DNA of 64,000 nucleotides from a virus (taxonomy: Duplodnaviria > Caudoviricetes). Under the pieces are notes generated by a model. It had not been told where the DNA came from. It did not search any database and saw only the letters and a program-made list of their open reading frames with translations. Below, piece by piece: positions 9,288 through 63,853 of the stretch. Made by a program: the position numbers and the translations under genes. The stretch covers positions 6,839 through 70,838 of the IMG/VR virus record IMGVR_UViG_2595698635_000001; one strand, given 5' to 3'. How positions within the stretch are numbered: the stretch's first letter is position 1; each line of letters begins with the position of its first letter.

Positions 9288-9345
9288 GGCGGGCCGGTCC
9301 CGCGCTGACAAGATTTAAGTTACCCGAGTCAGTCGGGTAAGTCAA
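9288..9345 (-). promoter_or_regulatory. Module 1: TTGACT-N17-TAACTT promoter, operator 9320-9340, hairpin 9288-9303
   Basis: TTACCCGA-GTCAG-TCGGGTAA palindrome between -35 and -10. Confidence 0.85.
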
Positions 9346-9384
9346 GTCCTACTGTCGCTCACCGCCTCGGGCTACCCTGGCCTG

Positions 9385-10128
9385 GTGAGCATCCACTGGC
9401 CCATCGACCGCGTGACGGACCCGCTGCCCGACCGCCCCGACCCGGTGACGCCCGAGTGGATCAAGGCGGCGCTGGAGCGCAACGGGGCCGAGACCATGGC
9501 CACCGCGATCATCCACTACCTGAGCGGTCGGCAGTTCGGCTACGAGACCGTGACCGTTCGACCGTGCCCTCAGGGCGTCCGCCACCGCCTCCGCGAGACC
9601 GAGGTGACCTCCTACCTGGTGAGCTGGGAGGGCTACGGCTGGGTCGGCGTCCCGTGCGGCTGTGGCCCGCGCTGCTCGGTCAGCGGGCCACGGGTGATCC
9701 ACCTGCCCGGCCCGGCGGCTGAGATCGAGAGCGTGGTGATCGAGGGCGTGACCATCCCCGAGGTCGGCTACCGGCTGGAGGGCAACGCGCTCTACCGCGT
9801 CGGCGGCAACTGGCCCGCCCAGGATCTGGGCAAGCCGCTCGGTGAGTCGAACACCTGGTCCGTGACCTACCACCGGGGTCAGCCGGTGCCGGGCGGCGTC
9901 GGCGCGCTGACCGGCCTGCTGGCCAAGGAGATCGAGACCGCCATCCACGACGACGGCGAGTGCCGCCTGCCGCGCACCGTCACCACCGTGAGCCGCCAGG
10001 GCGTCACGTACCGCGCCTACGACCCGGCGGTGATCTACAAGACCGGCAAGACCGGCCTCCCCGAGGTCGATCTGTGGCTGGCCTCGGTCAACCCGAACGC
10101 GCTGATGGCCGCGCCGAGCGTGCGATGA
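9385..10128 (+). CDS. Head-to-tail adaptor
   Basis: LSGRQFG...VRPC, CRLP...SRQGV, KTGLPEVDLWLASVNP motifs; synteny. Confidence 0.75.
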   Translation: MSIHWPIDRVTDPLPDRPDPVTPEWIKAALERNGAETMATAIIHYLSGRQFGYETVTVRPCPQGVRHRLRETEVTSYLVSWEGYGWVGVPCGCGPRCSVSGPRVIHLPGPAAEIESVVIEGVTIPEVGYRLEGNALYRVGGNWPAQDLGKPLGESNTWSVTYHRGQPVPGGVGALTGLLAKEIETAIHDDGECRLPRTVTTVSRQGVTYRAYDPAVIYKTGKTGLPEVDLWLASVNPNALMAAPSVR

Positions 10129-10673
10129 CCGCGCCCGGCTGCCGGGTAGACCCGGCCATGGAAGTGATCGGCGCGGCGTCGGCGGCGCTGGCGTCACAGT
10201 TCGCCGATCACCCTCAGTGCCCGCCGCTGGTCGGCGCGACCGAGAACGTGCGGTTCCTGGCCGGTGACGGCGCGCCTCTCGCCGCCTGGGACAGTCACGC
10301 CAAGGGCGGTAAGCGCGGGTGCGCTGAGCCGTTCGTCTGGGTGCGGGCCATGCGCCGGTTCCGCTCGGCCACCTTCCCCCGCGAGACCCTGGACCAGAAC
10401 CCGTGCTCGCTGCCCAAGGTGCTGGCGGTGGAGCTGGGCGTGGCGTGGTGCGCGGTGATCGCTGACCGGCCCGACCGCGCGCCCAAGTTCGAGGATCTGG
10501 CCCGCGAGGCCGAGGTCAGCATGGACACCGCCTGGCGGCTGGAGAACGCGATGTGCGCGGCGGCGAAGACGCTGACCGGCCAGGAGCGACAGGTCGGGAC
10601 GGACACCGTGGTCCCGTATGGTCCTGAGGGAGGGATCATCGCCTGGTCGGGCGTGATCTACGCGAGCTACTGA
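10125..10673 (+). CDS. Virion joining protein (tail terminator-like)
   Basis: ATGA overlap; C-terminal PYGPEGG motif; synteny. Confidence 0.55.
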   Translation: MTAPGCRVDPAMEVIGAASAALASQFADHPQCPPLVGATENVRFLAGDGAPLAAWDSHAKGGKRGCAEPFVWVRAMRRFRSATFPRETLDQNPCSLPKVLAVELGVAWCAVIADRPDRAPKFEDLAREAEVSMDTAWRLENAMCAAAKTLTGQERQVGTDTVVPYGPEGGIIAWSGVIYASY

Positions 10674-10683
10674 GGAGCGAGTC

Positions 10684-11001
10684 ATGGCCAAGATCACCGT
10701 CGAGGGAAGCATCCTGCCGAGCGCGTTCCTGGCGCGCGGTGACCGCGCCGAGGTCAACGACAGCGACCCCACCGTGCAGTACCTGATCGACCAGGGCTAC
10801 GTGAACGTGGTCGACACCGAGACCGGCCAGCTGGAGCCGCCCCCGGTCCCCGAGGCCCCGAGCCCGAACGCCAGCACCAAGGACTGGCAGGCGTTCCTCA
10901 CCAGCCAGGGCGTCGACTACCCGACCGAGGGCGACGGCTCCGGTCGCAACGAGCTGGTCGCGCTCTGGGAGCGGACGATCAATCCGCCCCCGGCTGAGTG
11001 A
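10684..11001 (+). CDS. Hypothetical protein with C-terminal HeH/LEM-like motif
   Basis: GAGGAG RBS; PSPNASTKDWQAFL...RNELVAL. Confidence 0.65.
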   Translation: MAKITVEGSILPSAFLARGDRAEVNDSDPTVQYLIDQGYVNVVDTETGQLEPPPVPEAPSPNASTKDWQAFLTSQGVDYPTEGDGSGRNELVALWERTINPPPAE

Positions 11002-11411
11002 CCGCGCGCATCCGCGCCCGCGTCGAGATTGACGAGGCGGCGCTGGAGCGGGAGTCGGGGCGTGATCTGCGCGCGTTCCACCGGTCGCTCACCCGGCGCA
11101 TCGCCAATCAGGCCCGCGCCGACGTCCCCGTGCGTACCGGCAACCTCGGGCGCACCATCGGTGAGATGCCTCAGGTCTACACCCCGTTCCATGTGAGCGG
11201 CGGCGTCGAGGCCACCGCCGACTACGCGGCTGCCGTGCATGAGGGGTCGCGGCCACACCGCATCGCCGCCCGCAGCGCCGACGCGCTGCGCTTCGTCTGG
11301 CACGGGCGCGTGATGTTCCGCAAGTCCGTCTGGCACCCCGGCACCCGAGCCCGCCCGTTCCTGCGCAACGCCGCCCGCCGGGTCGTCGGCGCTGACCCGC
11401 GCGTCCACTGA
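10998..11411 (+). CDS. HK97 gp10-like tail/neck component
   Basis: PVRTGNL, YAAAVHEG, HPGTRARPFLRNA motifs. Confidence 0.75.
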   Translation: MTARIRARVEIDEAALERESGRDLRAFHRSLTRRIANQARADVPVRTGNLGRTIGEMPQVYTPFHVSGGVEATADYAAAVHEGSRPHRIAARSADALRFVWHGRVMFRKSVWHPGTRARPFLRNAARRVVGADPRVH

Positions 11412-11526
11412 GTTATCCGACTCGGTGCTACCCTCGGGCGTGAGGTGAGTGTTCCAGCGAGGCCGGAACTTAAAGTCGGAGGCGACCGGCGCTCACCGTG
11501 ACCTCAGGGCTTCGGGAAGGAACCAC

Positions 11527-12204: not shown

Positions 12205-12231
12205 CGGTCATCCATCGGATAGCCTGACCAG

Positions 12232-18201: not shown

Positions 18202-18209
18202 GAGGCAAG

Positions 18210-27688: not shown

Positions 27689-28060
27689 TTGTACGATCCA
27701 CCGCCTGGGTATGACGACTGCGAGTCAGACGCCGAGGACCATCCGACACCGCCCGGCCATCCGTACCGTGAGCTGGTGGTCGACGGGATCGGCATGACGC
27801 TCCACGCGCGTAAGCCTCTCCCGAACGCCATCCCCGCGCTGGCCGGGGCGGCGAACAGCAAGGTCGGGCCTCAGATGAGGATTGACCAGCTCGACATCTT
27901 CGTCCAGAACCACCTGGCCGAAGGCGAGTTCGAGCAGCTGCTGGCCAAGATGATGGACCCCGACCAAGACATGCCGCCGGACACCATGCTGAGGGTGAGC
28001 CGGGCGATTGCAACGGCGGGTACCGCCCGCCCTACACGGCGGTCATCTACCTCGCGTTGA
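27689..28060 (+). CDS. Tail assembly chaperone paralog (G-like)
   Basis: Aligns by eye with the C-terminal domain of 11527-12204; GGGAG before TTG start. Confidence 0.65.
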   Translation: MYDPPPGYDDCESDAEDHPTPPGHPYRELVVDGIGMTLHARKPLPNAIPALAGAANSKVGPQMRIDQLDIFVQNHLAEGEFEQLLAKMMDPDQDMPPDTMLRVSRAIATAGTARPTRRSSTSR

Positions 28061-30623: not shown

Positions 30624-31397
30624 TTACCAGCCCGCCTTGGACGCGCACTTGGGTCCGATGCCTCGGGCGCGGCTCTCGTCGTTGGTCAGCGTCCGCCCGC
30701 ACAGCCCGCACTCACCGATGTGATGGCCGTAGGCGGCGCTCGCGGCCTCAGCGCCGACCGCCGCGATCTTGCGGAGGATGGCGTCACCAGCGGCGCGGCT
30801 CAGCCGCACCTCCTCGTCGGACTGCATCAGCTTGACGAACACGAACCCGGCCCACTTGCCCGAGTCGGGCCGGTCGACCTTGTAGAAGGCCAGCTCGTTG
30901 GTCGCGCCCGCCTCGGTGGCCACCGCGTACCGACCGGCGGGCACCACCTCGGCGCTCGGGCGGTCACCCGTCACGGGCAGCTCGGCGTCGGCCTTGGGCG
31001 CGCCGGGCGTCAGGTCGAACAGCCAGGTGATCAGCTTGGACGCGCCCTCCTTGGTCAGCGGCGCGTACAGCCACCGGTCCTCAGCGCGGAGGTCACCGTT
31101 GGCCTCGTTGAGGTAGGCCAGGATGGCGTTCACGCGCTCGCCGTAGGCGGCACCGCGCCCGACCGCGTTGTGGATGGCGCGGCTGACCTCGGCGGGCGTG
31201 GCGTCGGCCATCGGGGCCAGCGCCCAGCTGATGACCAGGTTGAGCACGGTGCAACGCTGGATGTACTTGTCGGCGTTCTCGGCGTCACGCCAGTAGCCGC
31301 GCTCCAGGGCCGGAACGATGGCCCGCTGGATCTGGGCGTCGGTGGCCGGGCGGACGTCGGTGGCGGCGGCGGCGGTGGACTTGAACGGTGAACCCAT
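30624..31397 (-). CDS. DUF6011-like Zn-finger protein
   Basis: C-terminal CGLCGRTLTNDESRARGIGPKCA. Confidence 0.75.
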   Translation of the reverse strand: MGSPFKSTAAAATDVRPATDAQIQRAIVPALERGYWRDAENADKYIQRCTVLNLVISWALAPMADATPAEVSRAIHNAVGRGAAYGERVNAILAYLNEANGDLRAEDRWLYAPLTKEGASKLITWLFDLTPGAPKADAELPVTGDRPSAEVVPAGRYAVATEAGATNELAFYKVDRPDSGKWAGFVFVKLMQSDEEVRLSRAAGDAILRKIAAVGAEAASAAYGHHIGECGLCGRTLTNDESRARGIGPKCASKAGW

Positions 31398-31417: not shown

Positions 31418-31475
31418 GGCGGGCCGGTCCCGCCTTGATGAGACCACACTAACCCGAGTGAGTCGGGTATGTCAA
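31418..31475 (-). promoter_or_regulatory. Module 2: TTGACA-N18-TAGTGT, operator 31450-31470, hairpin 31418-31434
   Basis: Repeat motif match. Confidence 0.85.
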
Positions 31476-38460: not shown

Positions 38461-38520
38461 GTGGTGGAGGCCTTAGCTGGTGTGGTGGTGGGAGTGGAGG
38501 CAGAGGCGGGGGAGGGTGTT

Positions 38521-38593
38521 GGTGGTCGGGTCACTCGGGGTCTCCGTGTGACCCGACCACCTGACACTAGCCCGAGTCAGTCGGGTGAGTCAA
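38521..38593 (-). promoter_or_regulatory. Module 3: TTGACT-N18-TAGTGT, operator 38568-38588, followed by a 14-bp hairpin
   Basis: Repeat motif plus GGTGGTCGGGTCAC / GTGACCCGACCACC. Confidence 0.8.
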
Positions 38594-38754
38594 GACCAGC
38601 GCCGCGTGATGCAGACCTGCATCTCGTTGCGCCTGGCGGCACGGTAGGCCCGCCAGACCGCGAGCACCGAGTCACCCTCGTAGAGCAGCTGGTCGTGGTA
38701 GCCGTCGGGCGTCATGTCCCGACCCTCCACGCGCCAGCGCGCGGACTTGCTCAT
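38590..38754 (-). CDS. 54-aa hypothetical protein (MSKSARWRVEG...), not in the ORF track
   Basis: ATGA overlap with the upstream gene; GC3 codons. Confidence 0.6.
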   Translation of the reverse strand: MSKSARWRVEGRDMTPDGYHDQLLYEGDSVLAVWRAYRAARRNEMQVCITRRWS

Positions 38755-47427: not shown

Positions 47428-47759
47428 CGCTTGGCCTGCTGGGCGTACTCGGGGTCACGGCCCAGGTGAACCTCCACGTCACCGTAGTGCTCGGCGGGGC
47501 GGATGATCACCGGCTCGTCGTGCTCCAGGGTGTACTCCTCCTCGGCCCCGTTGCCGATCAGCACCGCGACGTGGCGGGCGTCGATGGACAGCTGGCGCAG
47601 CTCACCGGTCACGATGGCCACGGTCTCGCGGTCGTCACGGGTGACGCGGAAGCGGATCAGCGTTCCGATGTAGTCGGCGCTGAGCTGACTCGCGTGACGG
47701 ACGTCGGGCTGCTGAGCGTCGGCCCGGCCCGGCATGAACGAACTGGAAGCGCCCATCAC
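47424..47759 (-). CDS. Hypothetical protein (start uncertain)
   Basis: Good codons from about 47715; overlaps the upstream gene. Confidence 0.55.
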   Translation of the reverse strand: MMGASSSFMPGRADAQQPDVRHASQLSADYIGTLIRFRVTRDDRETVAIVTGELRQLSIDARHVAVLIGNGAEEEYTLEHDEPVIIRPAEHYGDVEVHLGRDPEYAQQAKR

Positions 47760-48096
47760 CGACCGCGAGGTGGACGTGCTTGGGGTCGACGTAGCGCACC
47801 GTGCAGGTGGTGTCCCAGGGCGCGAGGAACGGCGCGGCGCACTCGCTGATGGTCGGCCATGGGCTCACCAGCTGGCCCGCCGAGTACAGGCCCGGCGCGG
47901 CCCCGTTGCTGTTGCCGGGTCCACAGACCCGATCACCGTTGACGCGGCAGTCCCAGGCCGGATCGTCCTCCTGGATCGGGGCGCTCGGGGCCGGTGGCGC
48001 GGCCTCGGCCACGCCTGCACCCCAGGCCACGCCCAGGGCCAGCACAGCGCCGGTCACGACGCCGCCCGCGAACGCACGGATGGTGGATGGTCTCAT
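47635..48096 (-). CDS. Secreted/membrane protein with EDDPxWDC...CG motif
   Basis: Signal peptide ending AEA; GGAGG RBS. Confidence 0.7.
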   Translation of the reverse strand: MRPSTIRAFAGGVVTGAVLALGVAWGAGVAEAAPPAPSAPIQEDDPAWDCRVNGDRVCGPGNSNGAAPGLYSAGQLVSPWPTISECAAPFLAPWDTTCTVRYVDPKHVHLAVGDGRFQFVHAGPGRRSAARRPSRESAQRRLHRNADPLPRHP

Positions 48097-48124
48097 GTGG
48101 TGTTCCTCCAGGTCAGGAGTGTAA

Positions 48125-48202
48125 GCGGGCCGGTCCCGCCTGACTTATTAGGTTATATCTTAGTCGGCTCGCCGCCGTCAAGTTACCCGAGTGAGTCGGT
48201 AT
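48125..48202 (-). promoter_or_regulatory. Module 4: operator 48183-48202 upstream of TTGACG-N18-TATAAC, hairpin 48125-48140
   Basis: Variant arrangement of the repeat. Confidence 0.7.
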
Positions 48203-48212: not shown

Positions 48213-48554
48213 TCACGCATCACGCCGCCCCGTCGCCGCCCACCGCTGCCCGCGCTGAGCCTGGTACAGCAGCGTGATCTGGCGGGCCATGTCGGGCGGC
48301 AGCGTGGCCAGCAGCTGACCCAGCTCGGTGCGCGGATCCCACTGACCGAGGGAGCCGGGCGTCACCTCGGCGTCGGTGGCGCGCACGCTCAACTCCTCCA
48401 CCAGGGCGCAAAACGGGCCGAACTGATTGGCGCTCACCGGGCGCGCGGCGGCGTACCCGAGGGCGAACGCCAGCGCGGCGGTCGGGGCCTGGCTGAGCGG
48501 GATGGAGGCGGTGCCGGTGGCGAACTCACGGCGGGCGGGCGGTGTGGCGGTCAT
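48213..48554 (-). CDS. Hypothetical protein (probably leaderless)
   Basis: TAGTGT 6 nt before ATG; operator upstream. Confidence 0.7.
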   Translation of the reverse strand: MTATPPARREFATGTASIPLSQAPTAALAFALGYAAARPVSANQFGPFCALVEELSVRATDAEVTPGSLGQWDPRTELGQLLATLPPDMARQITLLYQAQRGQRWAATGRRDA

Positions 48555-48560: not shown

Positions 48561-48590
48561 ACACTAGCCCGAGTCAGTCGGGTGAGTCTC
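48561..48590 (-). promoter_or_regulatory. Operator copy 5 (48565-48585) with TAGTGT -10
   Basis: TAGCCCGA-GTCAG-TCGGGTGA. Confidence 0.75.
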
Positions 48591-48643
48591 ACGCGCGTGT
48601 ACGCGCACGCGCGCATGTACGCGGGCGCACGCGCGTGCGCGCG
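48590..48643. repeat. Alternating purine-pyrimidine tract
   Basis: CACGCGCGTGTACGCGCACGCGCGCATGTACGCG(G)GCGCACGCGCGTGCGCGCG. Confidence 0.85.
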
Positions 48644-48900
48644 ACATCTAACCAGATCGGCCCCTGTTTTGTCAAGCGGTTGACAATCTCCTTGACAAGG
48701 GCGGTAGGGTCAGCCTGAGAACTCGCTGACCCACCGAGCCAGGGTCAATGTCAGGGTGGTTCTGAGTGAGAGTGATACTCCTCCTGCCCGTGGCCCCGCC
48801 ATCGTGATCCGAACGCGCCGCACCCTTCGGGCGCGTTCGCACACTGGCCCCGCCCTCGGCCATCTAGCGCGCCGGGGAGATATGGGGTTATCTTTAATCC

Positions 48901-50806: not shown

Positions 50807-51065
50807 TAACAGCCAGGTGGTGCGCGCCCAGGTGGACCGGGCCACCGCGTGCTTCTACCCCGGCAACAAGAACCGGGTCGTGGTGGTGGCCGATGCCGCC
50901 GACTTCGGCGCGGCCATCGCCGCCCTGGAGGAGCTGCGCGCTCACGCCGAGCCCGGCGAGTACCTAGGCTGCATGGACTGTGGCGGACGCACCTGGAGCC
51001 CTGACCCGCCCGAGGAGACCGAGGGCGAGCACTACAACCGGATGAACGGGCTCGGCCCCGAGTGA
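50781..51065 (+). CDS. Hypothetical protein
   Basis: GAGGAG before GTG 50781. Confidence 0.6.
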   Translation: MTVRVIDVDNSQVVRAQVDRATACFYPGNKNRVVVVADAADFGAAIAALEELRAHAEPGEYLGCMDCGGRTWSPDPPEETEGEHYNRMNGLGPE

Positions 51066-51104: not shown

Positions 51105-51785
51105 ATGACCGTTAGCGATGACGACCTCAGCAGCTTGATCAACGAGGAGCTGCTGGCCCGACGGACCAAGGTGATGTACCTCAAGAACGCCGGGGCCACC
51201 TGGGCTCAGATCGCCCAGCAGGTCGGCGTGTCCATCGCCACCTGTCGCAAGGACATGGCCATCGTCCAGCGCGACATCAACAACGAGCAGCCGAGCCAGG
51301 TCGTGGCCCGTCACCGCGCCGTCATCTTCGACATCCAGCGGGCCAACTACCCGGCCATGATGCGCGGCGACAAGGACGCCGCCATGGTGATCCTCCGCGC
51401 CCTCCACCGTGAGGCCAACCTGCTCGGGCTCGACAGCCCGACCCGAGTGCTGGCGGCGGTCAGCGCGGAGGACTTCGCCAACGAGGCCGCGCGCCTCATC
51501 GAGAGCATTACATCCAAGGACGCCGACACCCTCAAGGAGCTGACCAGTGCGAACCGACCGATCACTGTCGAGGAAGTCCCCCTCCCCGAGCCCGAGGTGG
51601 CTGGACCAGATCAAGGCCAGCCTCCCGCCGTGGCAGGGGAGCCTGATGGACCGGCTGCTCAGCCGCCCGGCGGGTCAGCCGCTGATGGTCGCGCCCCCAC
51701 CGACGCACCCGAGCGCGAGTCCCGCGTACCTGGACAGGCTGGCCTCCCCGACCTTCCCGACGACGACGGATGGTCCAATCTCTGA
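51105..51785 (+). CDS. HTH DNA-binding protein (terminase small subunit-like)
   Basis: GATWAQIAQQVGVSIAT HTH; REANLLGLDSP motif. Confidence 0.7.
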   Translation: MTVSDDDLSSLINEELLARRTKVMYLKNAGATWAQIAQQVGVSIATCRKDMAIVQRDINNEQPSQVVARHRAVIFDIQRANYPAMMRGDKDAAMVILRALHREANLLGLDSPTRVLAAVSAEDFANEAARLIESITSKDADTLKELTSANRPITVEEVPLPEPEVAGPDQGQPPAVAGEPDGPAAQPPGGSAADGRAPTDAPERESRVPGQAGLPDLPDDDGWSNL

Positions 51786-55268: not shown

Positions 55269-55423
55269 CGCGCCGCCCGGCTCGGCGGGTCGAACACCAG
55301 CCGCCAGCGCCCCTGAGGCGGGCACCAGACCAGCACCCAGGCCGACCGCCCGGCGAGGCCGCGCTGAGCGGCGTCAGCGTCATTCAGGCGGGCAACGTCG
55401 GCCCGCGTGGGCACCGGGGTCAC
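55265..55423 (-). CDS. Small hypothetical protein
   Basis: GTGA overlap chain. Confidence 0.5.
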   Translation of the reverse strand: MTPVPTRADVARLNDADAAQRGLAGRSAWVLVWCPPQGRWRLVFDPPSRAAR

Positions 55424-55626: not shown

Positions 55627-55853
55627 GGCGCGGGGAACGGGCTCAGGCCGCGCTTCACGCGAGCGTCGACACTCTGGCAGTTGAACGCGTGGTCGGTGGT
55701 CTCGGCGGTCTGGCAACAGGCCCTCACGCCATGGGCGCACGGCCTGACCGAGAAGTCGGCGGTGTCCACGCTGACCGGCTTGCCGCAGATGACGCACTTC
55801 GGCCAGTCGAACCCGCCCGAGCGGTCGGCGTAGTAGTGCTGGTGGTCGGCCAT
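55623..55853 (-). CDS. Small Cys-rich protein
   Basis: TGATG coupling; CVICG. Confidence 0.6.
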   Translation of the reverse strand: MADHQHYYADRSGGFDWPKCVICGKPVSVDTADFSVRPCAHGVRACCQTAETTDHAFNCQSVDARVKRGLSPFPAP

Positions 55854-55999
55854 CAGATCCTCGGCAGGGGGATGCCGCCGGGGTAGGCGATGTCCTTGAG
55901 CCGGTGAAGCTCGGCCTCCTGGGCCTCGGTGAGCTTGTCCCACGGCTTGACGTCGGCCAGCAGAGCGGCGATCTGGCGCTTGGCCTCGGACTTGAACAT
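55853..55999 (-). CDS. Small protein, first gene of module 7
   Basis: GAGGAG RBS after the hairpin. Confidence 0.7.
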   Translation of the reverse strand: MFKSEAKRQIAALLADVKPWDKLTEAQEAELHRLKDIAYPGGIPLPRI

Positions 56000-56018
56000 G
56001 TCGGTCTCCTCGATCAGT

Positions 56019-56074
56019 GGCGGTCGGCCCCGCCTCACACCCATTAAGTTACCCGAGTCAGTCGGGTAAGTCAA
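56019..56074 (-). promoter_or_regulatory. Module 7: TTGACT-N17-TAACTT, operator 56049-56069, hairpin 56019-56034
   Basis: Repeat motif match. Confidence 0.85.
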
Positions 56075-56080
56075 GCTGAC

Positions 56081-56362
56081 TCACGGGCACTCCGTCCCAG
56101 GTCGGTGGACCAGGCGGCATTCCGCGCAGATTGACTCACTCGGGGCCAGCTCGATGTCGCGGAGCCTGAGCCCGTCGCCCTGGCCGTTGGGCCGGTACCA
56201 GTCGGGCGCGTCCATCTCCAGGACGTCGGGCACGCTGTAGGCGCTGTCGTTGTCGCACCCGCCCACCTCGTCGCACCGGTCGCACACCACGGTCAGGTCG
56301 CCCGCGAGCTGGTGATCGGTCCAGGCGTGGCCACACCGGCACACGCGCCCTGGCCGCGTCAT
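56081..56362 (-). CDS. Small Cys-rich protein
   Basis: GGAGG RBS; CRCGH, CAEC. Confidence 0.6.
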   Translation of the reverse strand: MTRPGRVCRCGHAWTDHQLAGDLTVVCDRCDEVGGCDNDSAYSVPDVLEMDAPDWYRPNGQGDGLRLRDIELAPSESICAECRLVHRPGTECP

Positions 56363-56700
56363 CGCCGGGCCTCCTCGGTCTGCTGGCGGGCGTGGCTCGG
56401 GTCGACGCGGAACCACCAGGTCTCGCCCTCGGGTGAGGCCCCGGTCCAGTCGTCGCAGTCGAGCAGGATGAACCCCTCACGCGGGGCCATCGGGTGGTCG
56501 CGCAGTTCGTGGTGCGTGTTGCCCAGGCCATGGGCGTACCGAGGCCGACCGCCCTCGCGGAACGTCAGCCGGGCGGGCAGGTTGACCACCACCGCGCGCC
56601 GATCACCGAGCACGTAGTGGAGCAGGGGCGGATCCTCGATCACCTTGGCCCCGGCGGCGAACAGGGCGAACACCGCCTCCACGCGGCGACGGGCGCTCAC
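56359..56700 (-). CDS. Hypothetical protein
   Basis: Overlap chain. Confidence 0.6.
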   Translation of the reverse strand: MSARRRVEAVFALFAAGAKVIEDPPLLHYVLGDRRAVVVNLPARLTFREGGRPRYAHGLGNTHHELRDHPMAPREGFILLDCDDWTGASPEGETWWFRVDPSHARQQTEEARR

Positions 56701-57182
56701 GCGGACACCTGCTCGATCAGCACGCCGACGCTCATGCGCGGGCCGACGCGGTGCTCAGGGTTGGCGGCGCTCAGGATGAACCGCCCGTACTCGTCGTGGA
56801 CGGTCACCAGGTCGTGCGTGACGCGGAGCTTCATTCGGCCCGGCGGCTCGGTGATGAACGCCATGGACAGCGGGCCGGTCACCGAGTCGGCCCCGAACAG
56901 GTGCTCGACGTACCCGATAATCGACACGCGGGCCTCAGCGCCGGGGTCCAGGTCCACGGTGGGGATCGTGGTCTCGCGGACGTCGAAGTGACGGCGGTCG
57001 GTCGGCCTGGTCGACTTCCACCAGTCCCATAACAGCAGCGCCCCGGCCACCGCGAACGCTTCGGTCCAGCTCCAGTCGGTCACGTCATCCGGCAGGCCGA
57101 ACACGTACTCGGCCACGCGGAGGAACAGCCACATGCCGATCCACCAGGCCGCGATCCGGCCCAGCTCCCAGCGCGCGGTCAC
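56697..57182 (-). CDS. Membrane protein (2 TM)
   Basis: Trp-rich hydrophobic segments; GTGA overlap. Confidence 0.6.
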   Translation of the reverse strand: MTARWELGRIAAWWIGMWLFLRVAEYVFGLPDDVTDWSWTEAFAVAGALLLWDWWKSTRPTDRRHFDVRETTIPTVDLDPGAEARVSIIGYVEHLFGADSVTGPLSMAFITEPPGRMKLRVTHDLVTVHDEYGRFILSAANPEHRVGPRMSVGVLIEQVSA

Positions 57183-57442
57183 CGGGTCTGGTCCAGGGTC
57201 GGGCGGGGCTTCGGGCCGTGATCGGGGCAGAGCAGCCGTCCGATCTGGTCGCACGCGCCGCACACCGGGGCGGCGTCGGCAGCCTGGCGGCGGTCGGTGG
57301 CCCGCGCCAGCCGGTCGGCGCTGGCGGCGTCCCGCTGGAGGTCGATCAGCGTGTCGAGCTTCTGGTTCATGTCCTTGAGCAGGGTCAGGAACTCGTTCAC
57401 GGTGTGCGCGATGTCAAGGTCGATCTTGGGCAGGAGGCCCAT
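57179..57442 (-). CDS. Hypothetical protein
   Basis: GAAAGG RBS. Confidence 0.65.
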   Translation of the reverse strand: MGLLPKIDLDIAHTVNEFLTLLKDMNQKLDTLIDLQRDAASADRLARATDRRQAADAAPVCGACDQIGRLLCPDHGPKPRPTLDQTR

Positions 57443-57710
57443 CGTAGGTGCCTTTCGTGGTGATCGGGAGACCGTTACGCCTCAGCTTGGCGATCTCGTT
57501 CTTGCGGGTGCGGTGGTCTGACGGCGTGCCGCTCAGGCCCCCGATGAATCGTCCGTTCAGCCTCACTTTCCAATGGCCAGGGCGGGTCCGCCCGTGGGGC
57601 TCCAGCTCACCGCCCGCCGCCTCGATGGCGGCGAGCAGTGTCTTGAGTTCCTTGTGCCCGTTGCAGCGCCGTGACTTGCCGGACCCCGGTTGGGGCGGCG
57701 TGACCGTCAC
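57414..57710 (-). CDS. HicA-like protein
   Basis: KELKTLL...GG...GHWKV...GTPSDHR...IAKLRRNG. Confidence 0.65.
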   Translation of the reverse strand: MTVTPPQPGSGKSRRCNGHKELKTLLAAIEAAGGELEPHGRTRPGHWKVRLNGRFIGGLSGTPSDHRTRKNEIAKLRRNGLPITTKGTYDGPPAQDRP

Positions 57711-57928
57711 CGGCCCGCCGCCATTTCCTCGGCGCGCATGTGCTGGCCCATGAAGAACCCGGCGGTGCGCTGAGCGTGCGTGTAGCTGGTGGCGATGGCC
57801 TTGCCGAACCACACTCCGTGGTGCGCCACCTCTACGCGGAACCGACCGTCGAGCAGGTCGGTGATGATCCACTCGAAGTCACCGTCGTACTCGGTGGTGG
57901 AGGTGGTGGTGATCTCGATGGTGACCAT
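57707..57928 (-). CDS. Small protein, first gene of module 8
   Basis: GAGGAG RBS. Confidence 0.7.
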   Translation of the reverse strand: MVTIEITTTSTTEYDGDFEWIITDLLDGRFRVEVAHHGVWFGKAIATSYTHAQRTAGFFMGQHMRAEEMAAGR

Positions 57929-57947
57929 GACGGTCTCCTCTCTGTCT

Positions 57948-58005
57948 GGCGGGCCGGTCCCGCGCTGACCTGATCTAAGTTACCCGAGTCAGTCGGGTAT
58001 GTCAA
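57948..58005 (-). promoter_or_regulatory. Module 8: TTGACA-N17-TAACTT, operator 57980-58000, hairpin 57948-57963
   Basis: Repeat motif match. Confidence 0.85.
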
Positions 58006-58195
58006 CAACCCTGACCGGCAAATATCGGGGCGCAGCCGGGTGACGGCGGACGCGCCCGTCCAGCTTGGGCGCGAACCGCTTCCCGCACACCTGGCACTCG
58101 GCCCGGCCCTTGAAGTTCCGGTGCGGCCACTCGCCCGAGCCTGGGCAGCGCGGCGGTCGGCGCAGCTCCAGCGGCAGCAGAAGCTCGCGGCTCAT
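57989..58195 (-). CDS. Small Zn-finger protein
   Basis: CPGSG...CQVCG...H. Confidence 0.6.
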   Translation of the reverse strand: MSRELLLPLELRRPPRCPGSGEWPHRNFKGRAECQVCGKRFAPKLDGRVRRHPAAPRYLPVRVVDIPD

Positions 58196-58389
58196 CGTGG
58201 CGGGCTGATCACGCCGTCGGCGTCGAGGTAGCTCCAGTCGGTCGGCAAGAAGCCGTCCCGGCACAGCCACTCATCGAGCGCGGTGAACAGCTCAGCGCCG
58301 CGCTCTACGTCGGCCTGGCTGAGGCGCTGATCGGCGCTCACGCGAGCGCACAGGGCGCGTAGCTCGTTCAGTGTGGCGTTGGGGTCCAT
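58192..58389 (-). CDS. Hypothetical protein (MDPNATL...ALDEWL...GFLP)
   Basis: AGGAG RBS. Confidence 0.75.
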   Translation of the reverse strand: MDPNATLNELRALCARVSADQRLSQADVERGAELFTALDEWLCRDGFLPTDWSYLDADGVISPPR

Positions 58390-58444
58390 CTTGGTCTCCT
58401 ATCGGTGAGGGCGGGCCAGCCTGAGCCAGCCCGCCCTCAGTCGG

Positions 58445-58663
58445 TCATCGGACGGTGATCCACCGCATGGTCGTGGCCAGCAGGTCGTCGTAGTCCCCGT
58501 CGGTGGCCTCGTTGACGTAGGCGGTCACCTCGTCGGCGGGCACCCCGGCCTGGCGCAGGGCGCGCTGGACCTTGGACACGATCAGGAACCCGTTTCCGTC
58601 CTGGCCGATCAGCTCCACCTCCACCTCGGGGTACTTCGGCCCGTCGGCCTCGGCGGCGCTCAC
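58445..58663 (-). CDS. Hypothetical protein (LIGQDGNGF...GDYDDLL)
   Basis: Conserved-looking small phage protein; GTGA overlap. Confidence 0.75.
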   Translation of the reverse strand: MSAAEADGPKYPEVEVELIGQDGNGFLIVSKVQRALRQAGVPADEVTAYVNEATDGDYDDLLATTMRWITVR

Positions 58664-59316
58664 CAGCGGTTCGGCTCGGACTCGGGGTGGACGTAGCCAC
58701 CGCCCGCGAACGGGCCACCGCCCCGGCCACCTCGGCCACCGCCGGGCGCAGCGCTGCCGCCCCCGCCCAGGCCGACGATGAGCATCCCCGAGAACGGGTC
58801 ACCATGGTCCACCGCGCCGACGGTCTCAGACCGCTCCACGCGCCCGAACCGGCCCATCACCTCGGCGGTGGGCGGCTCCGCGCCGGGCGGGGGACCGAGG
58901 TGGTCGCCGCCGGTCATGTGGACCAGGCTCGGCCAGTTGGCCTCCCCGATGAACTCCAGCAGGCCCGGCCAGTTGAACCGGCGGGTCTCCGAGCCCGTCA
59001 CGACCCAGCGCACCGACCGGCCCTCACGCCAGCCGAGGGCGGCGTAGCTGTACTCGCGCCCGGCCTGGTACTTGGTGAAGTAGACCACCGGGCGGTCGTC
59101 GGCCCCGACCTCGGGCATCTTGGGCCGAGCCGCCTCGCGGGCCATCAGCAGCGCGCGGGCCTCGGCGCGCTCGCGCTCACCGGCCAGCTCCAGCAGGCGC
59201 GCGGCCTCCTGGCGCAGGTACGCGGCGCTGGGCGGCTGAGCGGTCACGCCCTCCGAGGGCGCGGTGGCGCGCTCACCCTCGGGCAGGCTGACGCTCTCGT
59301 TCGCGTAGTCAGTCAT
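58660..59316 (-). CDS. Hypothetical protein
   Basis: AAGGAG RBS. Confidence 0.7.
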   Translation of the reverse strand: MTDYANESVSLPEGERATAPSEGVTAQPPSAAYLRQEAARLLELAGERERAEARALLMAREAARPKMPEVGADDRPVVYFTKYQAGREYSYAALGWREGRSVRWVVTGSETRRFNWPGLLEFIGEANWPSLVHMTGGDHLGPPPGAEPPTAEVMGRFGRVERSETVGAVDHGDPFSGMLIVGLGGGGSAAPGGGRGGRGGGPFAGGGYVHPESEPNRW

Positions 59317-60229
59317 CGGTCTTGCTCTCCTTCTTGGTGTCGCGAGCCTCGGCCCGGTCGGCCTTGGTCTCCTTGGTGGTGGCGTCCTTGGCGGGCTTGT
59401 CGTCCGCGTCGGTCTTGGTGGTGGGCTTCCGGTCGTTGCGCGACCAGCCAGCGTCCACGGCGGGCTTGAGGTGGCGTTCCACCTCGTCGGTGAGCCGGTC
59501 GTTACCGGTCAGGGTGCGCTCGGTGTCGCGCATCGGCTTGAGGATGGACAGCTCGCGCACCGGGATCACGCGCTTGGTGAACGTGGTGCCGTTGGGGTTC
59601 TTGGTCACGGTCACCTCGGCCTCGTCCAGCCGGGTCAGCGGGTCGTCAGCGCCGCCGTTGCCGTACTGCGGGTGGACCACGGCCCAGCTGGCCAACGATT
59701 CAGCCGTCGCCAGGAGATTCCACGGGCGGTCGGGGAAATCGCCCACAGCGTCTCGCTCAGCCACGATCTCCTCCCAGTCGTGGGTCTTCACGGTCTGGGC
59801 CGGACTCAGCCCGAACGCCCGGCTGATGCCGTGGTCCGAGTCGGGGTCACCGATCACGACGTAGCGCGTGTCGGTGCGCGTGTCCTGGGCCTCCACGCCA
59901 TGGGTCACCTGAGCGCCCTTGCTGAGGCCGATCACCACGGCAGGGTCGTCGGTCTGGGCCACCACGGCGGCGACCTGAGGCACCGACGCCTGAGGGTTGG
60001 CCCAGGGCGCGCCGTCGTAGATCGGCACCTCCAGCTGGTCGCGGTCGGTGACGAACGGGTCGGTGAGCCCGGTCGGGCTGCCGCCCGTACCGAACACCTC
60101 GGTGAGCTTCATGCCGGTACCGGTGCCGCCGATGAACACGACGTCGGTCTTGGCCGCAGCGAGCGCGGTGGGCGTCACCAGGGCGGCGACAGTGGCCGCG
60201 CAGGCGGCGGTGGTGAGCAGGGTCTTCAT
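59309..60229 (-). CDS. Secreted PE-PPE-domain serine hydrolase-like protein
   Basis: Signal peptide; GGTG, IGLSKGA (GxSxG), IGDP, D.VGDFPDRPWNLLA...VHPQY. Confidence 0.8.
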   Translation of the reverse strand: MKTLLTTAACAATVAALVTPTALAAAKTDVVFIGGTGTGMKLTEVFGTGGSPTGLTDPFVTDRDQLEVPIYDGAPWANPQASVPQVAAVVAQTDDPAVVIGLSKGAQVTHGVEAQDTRTDTRYVVIGDPDSDHGISRAFGLSPAQTVKTHDWEEIVAERDAVGDFPDRPWNLLATAESLASWAVVHPQYGNGGADDPLTRLDEAEVTVTKNPNGTTFTKRVIPVRELSILKPMRDTERTLTGNDRLTDEVERHLKPAVDAGWSRNDRKPTTKTDADDKPAKDATTKETKADRAEARDTKKESKTDD

Positions 60230-60326
60230 GGTCTGGTCTCTCTGGGTAGGTGCTGGCGGGGTATCTGGTGGCGGTAGGTGGCCCGCCGGGCTCGGTGCTG
60301 AACCCGGCGGGCCGGTCTTGGTGAGG

Positions 60327-60617
60327 TCAGCCGACCTCGGGGCGGTCGTCGGTGTGGCCGTTGACGTAGTTGGTCACGCGGATGACGTCCATGCCGTTGG
60401 CGGTGTCCAGGTCGAACACGGCCACGCGGGCCTCGGTGCCGGTCTCGCCGTCGGCGTAGGTGCCGATCAGGACGTTCCAGGTCACGGTGGTCCAGGTGAT
60501 CTGAGCGCCGGTCAGCTCGACCAGCTCCATCATCGCGCCGAACATGGTGGTCACGCCGTGATCTTCGCTCAGCGCTTCGACGGCCCCGGCGGTGACGGCG
60601 ACGATGTTGTTGGCCAT
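60327..60617 (-). CDS. Hypothetical protein, first gene of module 9
   Basis: AAGGAGAG RBS. Confidence 0.75.
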   Translation of the reverse strand: MANNIVAVTAGAVEALSEDHGVTTMFGAMMELVELTGAQITWTTVTWNVLIGTYADGETGTEARVAVFDLDTANGMDVIRVTNYVNGHTDDRPEVG

Positions 60618-60638
60618 GGTGTCTCTCCTTTGTCTGTC

Positions 60639-60695
60639 GGCGGGACGGCCCCGCCTCACACCCATTAAGTTACCCGAGTCAGTCGGGTATGTCAA
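60639..60695 (-). promoter_or_regulatory. Module 9: TTGACA-N17-TAACTT, operator 60670-60690, hairpin 60639-60655
   Basis: Repeat motif match. Confidence 0.85.
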
Positions 60696-60718
60696 CAACA
60701 ACTAGCAGCAAATTGTGA

Positions 60719-60751
60719 TGGCCCGCCCTGGCCGATCACCAGGGCGGGCCA
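60719..60751 (-). terminator. Stem-loop after the DUF932 gene
   Basis: TGGCCCGCCCTGG / CCAGGGCGGGCCA. Confidence 0.7.
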
Positions 60752-60760
60752 CGCTCCCCG

Positions 60761-61822
60761 CTAGGCGGGCAGCAGCGCCGTGAACAGCTGGCCCTTGAGC
60801 TGGCCCAGGCTGTCCGACATCAGCGTCCGCTGAGCCCGGCGGATGGCGCGCTCCTCGTCGGTGGCGTCAGCGCCGAGGCTGACCGGGGCCACATGGTCGA
60901 GGTAGCGGGTGCCCGCGTTGTAGGCCCCGAACGCCGTGCCCTTGAACGCGGCCACGGTGGCGTCGCTGGCGTAGACCTCGAAGACCTCCAGCGCCTTGGC
61001 CTTGCGGGCCTCGGCCTGCTTCTCGGTGGTGGCCCCGCCGACGCCCCAGACGGCCTCCAGGCTCTCCAGAACCTCGGCGTCGGACATCTCCCGCGCGATC
61101 AGCCGCTCGCACTGCTCCACGAACGTGTCGCGGTAGGCGAACGTCAGCCCGAGCAGCGCCCGCACCTCGGCCAGACGGGCCTTCGGGGAGCCGGTGTGGC
61201 GCAGCGCCACCTGGGACCGCGCCGAGCCCTCGGCCATCCGCTGAGTGTTGGCGCACACGATCCGCACCGGGCTGATCAGCGCCCGCAGGCTGGCCTCGCC
61301 CGAGTGGTTGTTCAGGACGGAGATATACAGGTCGGTGGTGTCCAGCTCGCCCGTGACCGGGCTGCGAAACTCCATGTGGGCGGGCATCTTCATCGTGACG
61401 AAGGTGTCCCGGCCACCGCGCAGCGCGCCGATGGTCTCGATGTGTGCGCCGCCCTCGTCCACGATCTCGCTCAGCAGCTCGGTGGTCTCCTCGTTCTGGA
61501 ACGGGGTCCACCGGTCACCGACCACGCCCAGCGCCTCGGTGCCGCCGTTGATCGGGTTGGTCCGCACCACCGCGTAGCGGTCGGGAACGATCAGGCTGAG
61601 GGTCGCGCCCTCCACGCCCGACTGGTCCGGCACCTCGGCGGTCAGCGGCACCTTGCGGACGTCCCAGCCGCGCATGTGGGCGGCGTCCAGGGCCTCGTCG
61701 GTGGTCATGGCGTGGCCGACGGCCTGGCCGAGGCGGTGCCAGGCGCTGACTGTGCCGTCGGCGCGGGCCTCGGAGTCGGCGAAGCTGGTCACGCCGTCGG
61801 TGGTGTCGAGTTCGTGGGCCAT
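60761..61822 (-). CDS. DUF932-family protein
   Basis: AWHRLG, LGVVG.RW.PFQN, ETIGALRGG, NNHSG, SPVRIVCANT. Confidence 0.85.
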   Translation of the reverse strand: MAHELDTTDGVTSFADSEARADGTVSAWHRLGQAVGHAMTTDEALDAAHMRGWDVRKVPLTAEVPDQSGVEGATLSLIVPDRYAVVRTNPINGGTEALGVVGDRWTPFQNEETTELLSEIVDEGGAHIETIGALRGGRDTFVTMKMPAHMEFRSPVTGELDTTDLYISVLNNHSGEASLRALISPVRIVCANTQRMAEGSARSQVALRHTGSPKARLAEVRALLGLTFAYRDTFVEQCERLIAREMSDAEVLESLEAVWGVGGATTEKQAEARKAKALEVFEVYASDATVAAFKGTAFGAYNAGTRYLDHVAPVSLGADATDEERAIRRAQRTLMSDSLGQLKGQLFTALLPA

Positions 61823-61847
61823 GGTGGTCTCCTCTGGGTCGGTGTCA

Positions 61848-61903
61848 GCGGGCCGGTCCCGCCTGACAAGAACTAAGTTACCCGAGTGAGTCGGGTATGT
61901 CAA
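61848..61903 (-). promoter_or_regulatory. Module 10: TTGACA-N17-TAACTT, operator 61878-61898, hairpin 61848-61863
   Basis: Repeat motif match. Confidence 0.85.
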
Positions 61904-61921
61904 GCTCTGCTAGCAGGCAAT

Positions 61922-62074
61922 TTAGACGGAAATTAGGCCGAGCCCGAGGAACACGGGGATGGCCAGGAACCCGCCCAGGGCCATCACGGCCCCGGCGTAG
62001 CTCCATGCGGAGCGGTCGGGCGCGCCCGCCACCAGGAAGCACCCGGCCAGGGCGATGACGACGAGCACGATCAC
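61922..62074 (-). CDS. Small membrane protein (2 TM)
   Basis: Hydrophobic; GTGA overlap. Confidence 0.6.
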   Translation of the reverse strand: MIVLVVIALAGCFLVAGAPDRSAWSYAGAVMALGGFLAIPVFLGLGLISV

Positions 62075-62433
62075 GGCATGACCACCTTGAACTCGGAGCG
62101 GAGCAGGCACTGGCGCTTGCCCCTCGGTTTGACCAAGCAGTACAGCGGCTGGCCGTCGTTGGTGGCCATCACCGCGCTGATGCGGCACCTGAGCCCGGCG
62201 TACTCGGCCACGTCGCCCACAATGGGCACCACTGCCGTCTCATCGTCGCCCAGGCGGTTCAGCGCGGCGTCCTCGGCCTCGGCCTGGGCGTCGTCCTTGG
62301 TGGCGTGCCAGCCGATCTCCACGCCCGGCCCGTCCACGAACCAGGGCGTGCCCGAGCCCTTGGCGCTCATCCACCTGGTGATCTTGTACGGCCCGGCGGT
62401 GTACTCGCCGGGCTCGGGCCTGGTCCACTTCAC
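62071..62433 (-). CDS. Hypothetical protein
   Basis: GGAGG RBS; GTGA overlap. Confidence 0.65.
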   Translation of the reverse strand: MKWTRPEPGEYTAGPYKITRWMSAKGSGTPWFVDGPGVEIGWHATKDDAQAEAEDAALNRLGDDETAVVPIVGDVAEYAGLRCRISAVMATNDGQPLYCLVKPRGKRQCLLRSEFKVVMP

Positions 62434-62720
62434 TCGGGGCCTCCCGTCAGGAGGCGGCTGACGCCGCTGGGCACCTGGGCCGAGCCACCGCACCCGCAGA
62501 GCGTGCGGGCGGCGTAGATGGCGTCGGGGCAGCAGGCGTTCGCGTGGAACTCGTCCCACCACTCCGACCAGGTGAGCGCGTGGTCGAAGGTCTCGCCCAG
62601 GTTGGCGGGCTGGTCACCCTCGGGCGCTGGCGCGCTGGCGGGCCGGTGAGACCGGACGAACGTGGCGTAGCCGCCGTCACCGACCCGGCTCGGGGCGGTC
62701 TCGCGGGACTGGAACTTCAT
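62430..62720 (-). CDS. Hypothetical protein
   Basis: GAGGGA RBS. Confidence 0.65.
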   Translation of the reverse strand: MKFQSRETAPSRVGDGGYATFVRSHRPASAPAPEGDQPANLGETFDHALTWSEWWDEFHANACCPDAIYAARTLCGCGGSAQVPSGVSRLLTGGPE

Positions 62721-62733
62721 CGGGCGGTCCCTC

Positions 62734-63051
62734 TCAGTAACCGGCAGCCGCGAGGGCTGCCTTGGCGTCGGCGGCGGCGGGGATCGACTTCACGTAGACG
62801 ATGGACGAGTCGGGCCGGTGGTCGATGTCGTACCCGGCGGCGGTCATGGCCTCGGCCAGCTGGCCAGCCTTGCGGACGTTGGCCGAGTCGAGGTCGCTGA
62901 CGCTGACCCAGACTTGCGCCGGGACCGTCCGACCGTTGCCGCGCCGGGCGCAGTAGCCGGGCTTCGGGAACGGCTGAGTGATGATTCCGAAGTCGCGCTT
63001 GAGGGCGCGGCTGATGTGCGGGGCGGTCGGCAGGCCGTTGGTCACGGTCAT
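62734..63051 (-). CDS. Hypothetical protein, first gene of module 11
   Basis: GAGGAG RBS. Confidence 0.75.
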   Translation of the reverse strand: MTVTNGLPTAPHISRALKRDFGIITQPFPKPGYCARRGNGRTVPAQVWVSVSDLDSANVRKAGQLAEAMTAAGYDIDHRPDSSIVYVKSIPAAADAKAALAAAGY

Positions 63052-63071
63052 GGTGGTCTCCTCGGGGTCTC

Positions 63072-63128
63072 GGCGGGTCGGCCCCGCCTCACACGAACTA
63101 AGTTACCCGACTGACTCGGGTATGTCAA
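63072..63128 (-). promoter_or_regulatory. Module 11: TTGACA-N17-TAACTT, operator 63103-63123 (core inverted), hairpin 63072-63088
   Basis: Repeat motif match. Confidence 0.85.
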
Positions 63129-63169
63129 GCGCCCCGACCAGGCTATTCACCTGGCCGGGGCGCTCGGGC

Positions 63170-63772
63170 TCACTCAGACGCAGCGGCCTTGCGGGCGGCG
63201 CGGCGCTCACGGCGGGCCTGGAGGCGCTTGGCCTTGTCCTCGGGGGACTCGGCGGCGCGCTTGGCCAGCCGACGCTCGGCCCGGCGGGCGCGGCGAGCGG
63301 CCTTCTTGGCGTCGGCGTCGTCGGCCACCGGGGCGGGCTCGGCCACCGCGCCCTCGGTCTCGGCCTCGGCCTGAACCTCGGTCTCCTCGGCGTCGGCCTC
63401 GGTGACGATCTCGGTCTCGGGCTCGGCGGCGGGCTCGACCTCGGTCGGCAGTTCGATCTGGGCCTCGGCCTTCGGGGCCTTCTTGGCCAGCTTGGCCGCG
63501 ACCAGCTCGGTGAACGCCTCGGCGGGGATCTCGCCCCAGCCGTCCAGGAACTCGGTGCCGTCGATCTTGCCGTTGATGGCGGTCGGGACCACCGGGTAGA
63601 CCTTGGCGTCGGCTCCGTGGAGACGGCCCTTGGCTGCCTTGTAGGCGGCGGCGAACGTCTTGTGCCAGGTGGCACCGTCGACCGTGGCGACGTAGGGCAT
63701 GGTGCCTGAGGTGCGGGTGACGGGGGCGTTCTCGGTGCCGGGGATCTGGGCGGTGAAGGTGATGGTGGCCAT
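63170..63772 (-). CDS. Hypothetical protein with acidic linker and basic C-terminal tail
   Basis: AAGGAGAG RBS; GC3 codons. Confidence 0.75.
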   Translation of the reverse strand: MATITFTAQIPGTENAPVTRTSGTMPYVATVDGATWHKTFAAAYKAAKGRLHGADAKVYPVVPTAINGKIDGTEFLDGWGEIPAEAFTELVAAKLAKKAPKAEAQIELPTEVEPAAEPETEIVTEADAEETEVQAEAETEGAVAEPAPVADDADAKKAARRARRAERRLAKRAAESPEDKAKRLQARRERRAARKAAASE

Positions 63773-63796
63773 GGTGTCTCTCCTTGGGTTGTTGTC

Positions 63797-63853
63797 GGCG
63801 GGTCGGCCCCGCCTCACATCAACTAAGTTACCCGAGTCAGTCGGGTAAGTCAA
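63797..63853 (-). promoter_or_regulatory. Module 12: TTGACT-N17-TAACTT, operator 63828-63848, hairpin 63797-63813
   Basis: Repeat motif match. Confidence 0.85.

Follow-up and report, generated by a model that had tools for sequence, protein, structure and literature searches.

A short G+C-rich hairpin recurs in front of nine genes in the 64,000-nucleotide (nt) stretch of phage DNA analysed here, hereafter the window (bases 6839-70838 of the 70,838-bp viral record IMGVR_UViG_2595698635_000001; G+C 70%). The hairpin lies at a fixed distance from the promoter -10 element, is conserved throughout mycobacteriophage Cluster B and keeps its base pairing where its sequence changes. By these sequence features it belongs to a known kind of RNA element, the 5' stem-loop of mRNA leaders; it is strongly conserved and put to unusually standardised use, and we infer its function from the same features. 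With moderate confidence, we read it as a 5'-terminal stem-loop whose role is to shield leadered phage mRNAs against 5'-end-dependent decay.

The right arm of the window is 85-88% identical to mycobacteriophages 39HC, 40BC, Julie1 and Hosp over 56-60% of its length, and on this likeness we assign its source to a B6-like Cluster B phage of Mycobacterium smegmatis. A 93-nt query made from one promoter-hairpin cassette retrieved 354 phage records, every one from Mycobacterium or Mycolicibacterium phages. For comparison we used eight whole genomes (39HC, Julie1, BirdsNest, Vortex, Cooper, Rosebush, Phaedrus and Acadian), which together with the window phage form a nine-genome set that spans B1-B6 plus BirdsNest. 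The subcluster names (B1-B6) given here to the window phage and its relatives are those that we take to apply.

Leader hairpins at nine promoters

The original prediction, made by reading the window's sequence, placed a GCGGG-N5-CCCGC hairpin at nine sites. All nine hairpins are present, with coordinates counted on the + strand and genes, promoters and RNA on the - strand, and they carry the loops named there (ACCGG five times, GCCGA three times and GCCGT once). The stem motif as worded is exact at eight sites and fails at 56019, where the 3' arm is one base short and leaves 5 bp and a 6-nt loop. The hairpins (h1-h9) and their promoters are as follows.

9288..9304, - strand: h1 hairpin, CGCGGG-ACCGG-CCCGCC, 5 bp; precedes an 87-amino-acid DUF7185 gene (9006-9269)
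9319..9345, - strand: h1 promoter, TTGACT, 17-bp palindrome in the spacer, TAACTT
31418..31434, - strand: h2 hairpin, GGCGGG-ACCGG-CCCGCC, 6 bp; precedes a 257-amino-acid DUF6011 gene (30624-31397)
31449..31475, - strand: h2 promoter, TTGACA, palindrome, TAGTGT
48124..48140, - strand: h3 hairpin, GGCGGG-ACCGG-CCCGCU, outer G-U pair; precedes a 153-amino-acid gene (47635-48096)
48152..48201, - strand: h3 promoter region, degenerate palindrome (48185-48201) upstream of TTGACG-N18-TATAAC; coordinates counted from the sequence
56019..56034, - strand: h4 hairpin, GGCGG-GGCCGA-CCGCC, one-base deletion variant; precedes a 48-amino-acid gene (55853-55999)
56048..56074, - strand: h4 promoter; its edge at 56074 is the exact point where homology to 39HC and Julie1 ends
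57948..57964, - strand: h5 hairpin, CGCGGG-ACCGG-CCCGCC, 5 bp; precedes a 73-amino-acid gene (57707-57928)
57979..58005, - strand: h5 promoter
60639..60655, - strand: h6 hairpin, GGCGGG-GCCGU-CCCGCC; precedes a 96-amino-acid DUF7280 gene (60327-60617)
60669..60695, - strand: h6 promoter
61847..61863, - strand: h7 hairpin, GGCGGG-ACCGG-CCCGCU, extendable to GUCAG...CUGAC; precedes a 353-amino-acid DUF932 gene (60761-61822)
61877..61903, - strand: h7 promoter
63072..63088, - strand: h8 hairpin, GGCGGG-GCCGA-CCCGCC; precedes a 105-amino-acid gene (62734-63051)
63102..63128, - strand: h8 promoter
63797..63813, - strand: h9 hairpin, GGCGGG-GCCGA-CCCGCC; precedes a 200-amino-acid gene (63170-63772)
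63827..63853, - strand: h9 promoter

The nine downstream genes are small and without assigned function, belonging to the DUF7185, DUF6011, DUF7280 and DUF932 families or to families found only in PHROG.

These sites share a common layout: TTGAC(A/T), a 17-bp spacer filled by the palindrome ACCCGA-sTsAs-TCGGGT, a -10 hexamer TAACTT (TAGTGT at 31418) of the TANNNT type, and then the hairpin. The gap from -10 to hairpin is 11 nt (12 nt at 9288 and 57948), and the 18-27 nt from the 3' arm to the ATG hold a purine-rich Shine-Dalgarno site. At all nine sites the hairpin is thus found where it had been predicted, in the putative 5' leader between start site and ribosome site. Its position does not depend on that of the operator palindrome. 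The copy at 48125, said to persist despite a moved operator, does so: the palindrome there lies upstream of TTGACG-N18-TATAAC and the 11-nt offset is unchanged. A scan with the E. coli consensus called none of these promoters, TAACTT matching TATAAT at three of six positions; the mycobacterial TANNNT pattern fits, and mapped M. smegmatis promoters are described as having ANNNT at -13 to -6 and A or G as +1 (PMC6448022).

The same phage offers an internal guide to the transcript start. Six further palindrome sites in the genome lack the canonical hairpin, and three of the six (window 48567 and, outside the window, genome 1774 on the + strand and genome 4734 on both strands) carry four predicted leaderless promoters. 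In the four leaderless genes exactly 6 nt separate the -10 hexamer from the ATG. The predicted +1 is therefore the 7th or 8th nt after the -10, in agreement with the mapped M. smegmatis promoters, and the hairpin would accordingly begin at about +5, after GUGA or GUCA.

Chance does not readily account for the repetition. The window holds nine exact GCGGG-N5-CCCGC motifs where 1.14 +/- 1.14 would be expected; none of 100 shuffled sequences reached nine. Eight of these matches are sites listed above, and the ninth, at 28016, falls within a coding sequence. This copy, GGCGGGTACCGCCCGCC at window 28015-28031, is retained in 39HC, Julie1 and Acadian and is probably a coding-sequence coincidence. 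Folded in isolation, the window hairpins reach -9.1 to -12.5 kcal/mol; four of the nine (h2, h6, h8 and h9) consist of six G-C pairs, and the minimum-energy fold includes the hairpin in eight of nine leaders.

Conservation and base pairing in Cluster B

We surveyed the nine genomes promoter first, with a pattern (TTGAC, AGACA or AGACT, then 17-19 nt, then TANNNT) that ignores the hairpin and so avoids circularity. A canonical hairpin follows 82 of the 104 promoter-like sites; the remaining 22 comprise eight with another 5' hairpin, six with a start codon at leaderless distance and eight with neither. In the relatives the hairpin mostly lies 10-14 nt past the -10, and in B3 and B5 phages it adjoins the Shine-Dalgarno site, with 12-17 nt to the ATG. 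The -35, the -10 and the internal palindrome vary among subclusters (Rosebush has GAGACAA...TAATGT), and GGCGGG-N5-CCCGCC is still present.

Pairing was examined in an alignment of 79 promoter-linked copies, assembled from 81 regular-expression hits by removing three from BirdsNest that have no promoter context (11383, 57968 and 51234) and adding the window copy at 56019 by hand. Statistics were computed on its 73 distinct rows. In these, 98.9% of 437 stem cells are paired, none of 500 shuffles reaches the observed values, and controls in which the alignment is slid drop to 38-54% paired. Both sides have changed together at three of the six pairs (A-U three times at pair 1, C-G and U-A at pair 2, and C-G at pair 4), and all six promoter-linked copies with two substitutions are compensatory. 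G-U cells in the RNA sense add three distinct cases.

A covariance model built from this alignment and searched over 624 kb gave 137 matches at E <= 1. Inspection of 19 matches from outside the training set added two compensatory cases, at pairs 2 and 6, which brings compensatory changes to four of the six stem pairs. The search also recovered promoter-linked variants: GCCGGG...CCCGGC in Phaedrus, GGCGGC-ACGGTA-GCCGCC (a 6-nt loop) and a CACA tetraloop in Rosebush, and AAA and AGA triloops in Vortex. A few copies from this search carry a single terminal or closing mismatch.

The loop tells a different story from the stem. Stem columns hold 1.45-2.0 bits and flanks 0.04-0.98 bits, and loop columns 1-5 hold 1.42, 1.11, 0.54, 1.71 and 0.35 bits, giving a loose A-C-N-G-N consensus with G at position 4 in 70 of 73 distinct rows. 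Pentaloops follow subclusters (ACCGG, GCCGA or GCCGT in B6; ACGGA in B2 and B3; ACCGA in B5; ACCGC or ACAGC in B4) and are fairly uniform inside each genome, though Vortex (B1) alone has eight different ones. Across the cluster loop length ranges from 3 to 6 nt, and over 20 distinct loops occur in the relatives, some of them of three, four or six nt. The conservation that had suggested sequence-specific, boxB-like recognition of the loop is thus higher in the stem than in the loop, and the loops vary within genomes, so we do not retain that argument.

Because compensatory and G-U changes keep the pairing while the loops vary, the comparative evidence points to an RNA helix under structural selection. 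Stem variation falls mostly at the terminal pair and the two middle pairs are invariant; terminal-pair variation and a free loop length fit selection for stability on a very short helix. A change from G-C to C-G needs a mismatched intermediate, and A-U pairs lower stability.

Comparison with 39HC and Julie1 indicates that the surrounding units are swapped among phages. Homology to these two stops exactly at the -35 edge of h4 (56074), and both have, in place of the whole h6 promoter-hairpin-gene unit (60322-60732), a different gene that brings a cassette of its own; the units thus act as interchangeable modules. Terminator-like, G+C-rich hairpins of 15 bp lie directly upstream of the h6 and h8 promoters (60712-60748 and 63129-63163, - strand), and some units thus seem to be bounded by a terminator, a promoter and a leader hairpin.

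The stem sequence itself is not unique to these phages. A scan of viral contigs for GGCGGGA-N4-CCCGCCG found at least 126 loci, mostly in unrelated contexts such as terminators, and among the matches listed 16 had a promoter-plus-ribosome-site context. We thus rejected uniqueness of the stem, GGCGGG...CCCGCC being a generic hairpin in unrelated viral contigs.

Readings of hairpin function

Our favoured reading is that host RNA polymerase would transcribe each leadered mRNA from a SigA-type promoter. The predicted transcript opens with about 4 nt that are unpaired or weakly paired, continues through the 17-nt hairpin and a further 18-27 nt with the Shine-Dalgarno, and then reaches the ATG. If formed in vivo, the hairpin would act by structure alone: it would make the 5' end a poor substrate for pyrophosphate removal by an RppH-like enzyme and would hinder the host 5'-end-dependent nucleases RNase E and RNase J. 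The presumed result is a longer life and a higher yield of early and accessory gene messages, with every unit obtaining an identical insulated leader.

Several lines of evidence lead us to this reading. The hairpin's offset from the -10 is fixed, the element is conserved cluster-wide and its pairing is maintained. In addition, the sequence indicates that within one promoter class leadered mRNAs start with a hairpin and leaderless mRNAs have none; the promoter of that class at 38570 has a 5' hairpin of another kind. Protection from RNase J/E had been listed earlier as one option among several, and geometry, pairing and precedent make it the best supported of the mechanisms.

Precedent comes from mycobacteria. 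The long life of the M. tuberculosis small RNA DrrS is attributed to its 5' stem-loop, which is reported to raise a reporter threefold in M. smegmatis when placed after the start site (PMC5360333). In M. smegmatis, 5' untranslated region (UTR) structure outside the ribosome site is reported to go with a longer half-life (PMC11532794), and an RppH-type enzyme, MutT4, has been described for M. tuberculosis (PMC12988327).

Several observations count against protection of the 5' end. Two or more extra 5' nt are reported to have lowered DrrS stability (PMC5360333), and the predicted tail of about 4 nt lies at the edge of what worked there; the transcript start itself is, at all nine units, a prediction from -10 spacing. 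First-nt pairing with the bases after the hairpin is predicted in five of the nine window copies, and we rejected an extended helix of this kind as a conserved feature because only 25-62% of it is paired over the 73 rows. Leader folding z-scores (-1.96 to +0.84) are unremarkable at 70% GC, and the case for the hairpin thus rests on position, repetition and comparative data, with no significance drawn from folding energy. Stem sequence is more constant than pairing alone demands. The aligned copies had been selected for their resemblance to the consensus stem, which overstates stem conservation; the promoter-first survey partly corrects for this. At loop positions 1, 2 and 4 (A, C and G) conservation is fairly high, which leaves room for a specific partner. 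Finally, in a single B6-like metagenome copy the outer pair is an A-C mismatch when read in the sense strand; three G-U cases against one A-C case therefore point to that strand only weakly.

The conserved loop positions suit another explanation, in which the hairpin is a tag for a specific phage or host RNA-binding factor that loads an antiterminator, as at nut/boxB, or represses or activates translation at the ribosome site. The near-invariant stem across subclusters with diverged promoters and the non-random A-C-N-G-N loop would suit such a factor, the strong terminator-like hairpins upstream of h6 and h8 would offer substrates for antitermination, and in B3 and B5 phages the Shine-Dalgarno adjoins the hairpin. 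Yet loops differ between copies in one genome (the eight Vortex pentaloops plus AAA and AGA) and elsewhere include CACA and 6-nt forms, and compensatory stem changes are tolerated. Nor do the loops resemble GNRA loops, and an inspection of the nine leaders, made by eye and not as a formal scan, showed nothing like boxA. Antitermination would be superfluous where each unit has its own promoter. The operator co-varies among subclusters and the hairpin does not, which argues against a co-evolving phage partner, and the same stem is a generic hairpin in unrelated viral contigs. Rfam supplied no relevant match: none in the window at gathering score and, at E <= 1 within 55800-64000, only RAGATH-10 (E = 0.64), which is weak and unrelated. 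We regard a specific factor as rather unlikely.

A broader version, which we rate as rather improbable, treats the hairpin as a cluster-wide address label. A conserved factor, either a phage protein or a host protein shared by all Cluster B hosts, would read the stem together with the A-C-N-G-N loop and switch the tagged units jointly, and could act by terminator read-through, by late translation shut-off or by exempting phage messages when the phage sets off an attack on the mRNA of its host.

Alternatively, the hairpin may serve translation, either insulating the Shine-Dalgarno from upstream or read-through RNA or forming a platform beside the ribosome, so that translation becomes independent of context. 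The element does sit directly 5' of the ribosome site (18-27 nt before the ATG in the window, 12-17 nt before it in B3 and B5), units swapped between phages as modules would favour context-independent leaders, and 5' UTR structure is reported to affect ribosome access in M. smegmatis (PMC11532794). Its distance is nevertheless fixed to the -10 and variable to the start codon, which ties it to the transcript 5' end. We consider this role doubtful as the main function; it is compatible with 5'-end protection and hard to separate from it.

That the element works as DNA seems to us very unlikely. It is a perfect inverted repeat and could be a site for a dimeric roadblock protein at +5 to +21, or a PeSL-like recombination hot-spot given that homology breaks at cassette edges and whole units are swapped; a DNA-binding protein for GGGG...CCCC stems is among the speculations of the PeSL authors (PMC2839356). 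Compensatory changes, however, alter both half-sites at once, a loop of 3-6 nt varies the half-site spacing, the G-U cases are mismatches in DNA symmetry, and the observed breaks in homology fall at the -35 edge and past the gene, outside the hairpin. As an intergenic G-C hairpin the element might also be taken for a terminator or attenuator of transcription from upstream units, an idea that we give almost no credence since it lies downstream of the promoter and not before it, has a stem of merely 5-6 bp with no U tract after it on either strand, and coexists with separate, much longer hairpins upstream of several promoters.

If protection of the 5' end is indeed its role, the hairpin would complete a compact, naturally standardised expression module, in which a promoter containing its own operator is followed by a protective 5' hairpin and then a ribosome site, that is carried by the Cluster B phages, of which several hundred have been sequenced. 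Such a module would account for the expression of numerous small accessory genes as separate units open to exchange, and it would provide a ready-made part for mycobacterial gene expression. The contrast between leadered mRNAs with the hairpin and leaderless mRNAs would also offer a clean natural system in which to study 5'-end-dependent mRNA decay in an organism that has RNase E as well as RNase J.

Neighbouring features and known systems

The remaining palindrome sites of this phage are diverse. The leaderless promoter palindrome in the window occupies 48567-48583 (- strand), and one predicted leaderless open reading frame is 48213-48554. Another promoter is followed by a hairpin of a different kind:

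38521..38594, - strand: promoter of the same class with a different, 14+3-bp 5' hairpin at about equal offset

This hairpin, after the promoter at 38570, is much stronger than the canonical one (14+3 bp, z = -5.8). The region (window 38480-38594, - strand) has a C-rich leader of about 100 nt ahead of the open reading frame 36712-38460, and Julie1 and Cooper have other long hairpins at the equivalent position. At the palindrome site 63956, about 95 nt without a reading frame follow downstream; the stretch after this rightmost promoter (63856-63979, - strand) ends in a CCAGG-GAGAA-CCTGG hairpin and TTCACAATTT just ahead of the next promoter, and is a candidate small RNA. The palindrome site at 51056 has no clear -35.

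Further sequence features accompany these promoters. At h5, h6, h7 and h9 (about 58020, 60705, 61915 and 63865) the -35 is preceded, 10-25 nt upstream, by a recurring A/T-rich motif, CACAATTTSC or AAATTGCC, which may represent an UP-like element or an additional binding site. Around window 48584-48650, at the junction of the divergently transcribed arms and beside a TTGACA-type promoter, about 55 nt alternate purine and pyrimidine (CG/CA). Tracts of this sort come after TTGAC-N19-TACGCT in BirdsNest, Vortex and Cooper, and after different -10 hexamers in Rosebush and Acadian. A phage gene at 51105-51785 (+ strand) carries the PHROG 645 label 'RNase E', which Pfam, PDB sequences and NCBIfam do not support; its matches are all weak and resemble sigma-factor region 4 (helix-turn-helix), and we did not use it as evidence.

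A description of the hairpin or of Cluster B promoters was not found in the searchable literature, a search that did not extend to subscription reviews of mycobacteriophage genomics. Among known repeats, the SAS and ESAS elements of Cluster K (PMC3203893) are similar in that a conserved repeat, described there with its function untested, precedes many non-structural mycobacteriophage genes. SAS, though, is described as a 13-bp asymmetric sequence that includes the Shine-Dalgarno and lies 3-7 bp from the start codon, and ESAS as 17-bp inverted repeats with variable spacers (PMC3203893), whereas the hairpin is tied to the -10. The hairpin and SAS/ESAS are thus different elements.

PeSL units of T4-type phages, as reported in PMC2839356, likewise combine a repeated host-type early promoter with a G/C-rich stem-loop beside small orphan genes, and relatives differ by whole-unit swaps, as here at 56074 and 60322-60732. 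The PeSL stem-loop is described as a terminator upstream of its promoter (PMC2839356); the phage hairpin is, by prediction, transcribed, lies 11-12 nt past the -10 and has no U tract. In the window phage, separate terminator-like hairpins precede some promoters.

The boxB of the lambda nut site is a hairpin whose invariant, GNRA-like, purine-rich pentaloop is read by an arginine-rich peptide (N), with an adjacent boxA. Its stem of 5-6 bp, 5-nt loop and early-leader location resemble the phage hairpin, but the loops of the latter vary and are not GNRA-like, and it stands at every promoter as opposed to two lambda sites. No counterpart of N was identified among the genes downstream of the hairpins, which belong to DUFs or to no family, in an analysis that did not search specifically for N-like proteins.

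The closest parallels are the 5' stem-loop stabilisers: DrrS and, as cited in PMC7148126, the leader hairpin of E. coli ompA together with the leaders of B. subtilis aprE and ermC. Like these, the phage hairpin is a short stem-loop, predicted to lie near the first nt, that would act by structure; RNase E, RNase J and an RppH-like enzyme are present in its host, and a ribosome site follows it, as in aprE. The predicted tail here is about 4 nt as against 0-1, and a stabilising effect is proposed from sequence. Unlike the known stabilisers, one standard hairpin is used on 9-15 units per genome and is kept across a whole phage cluster.

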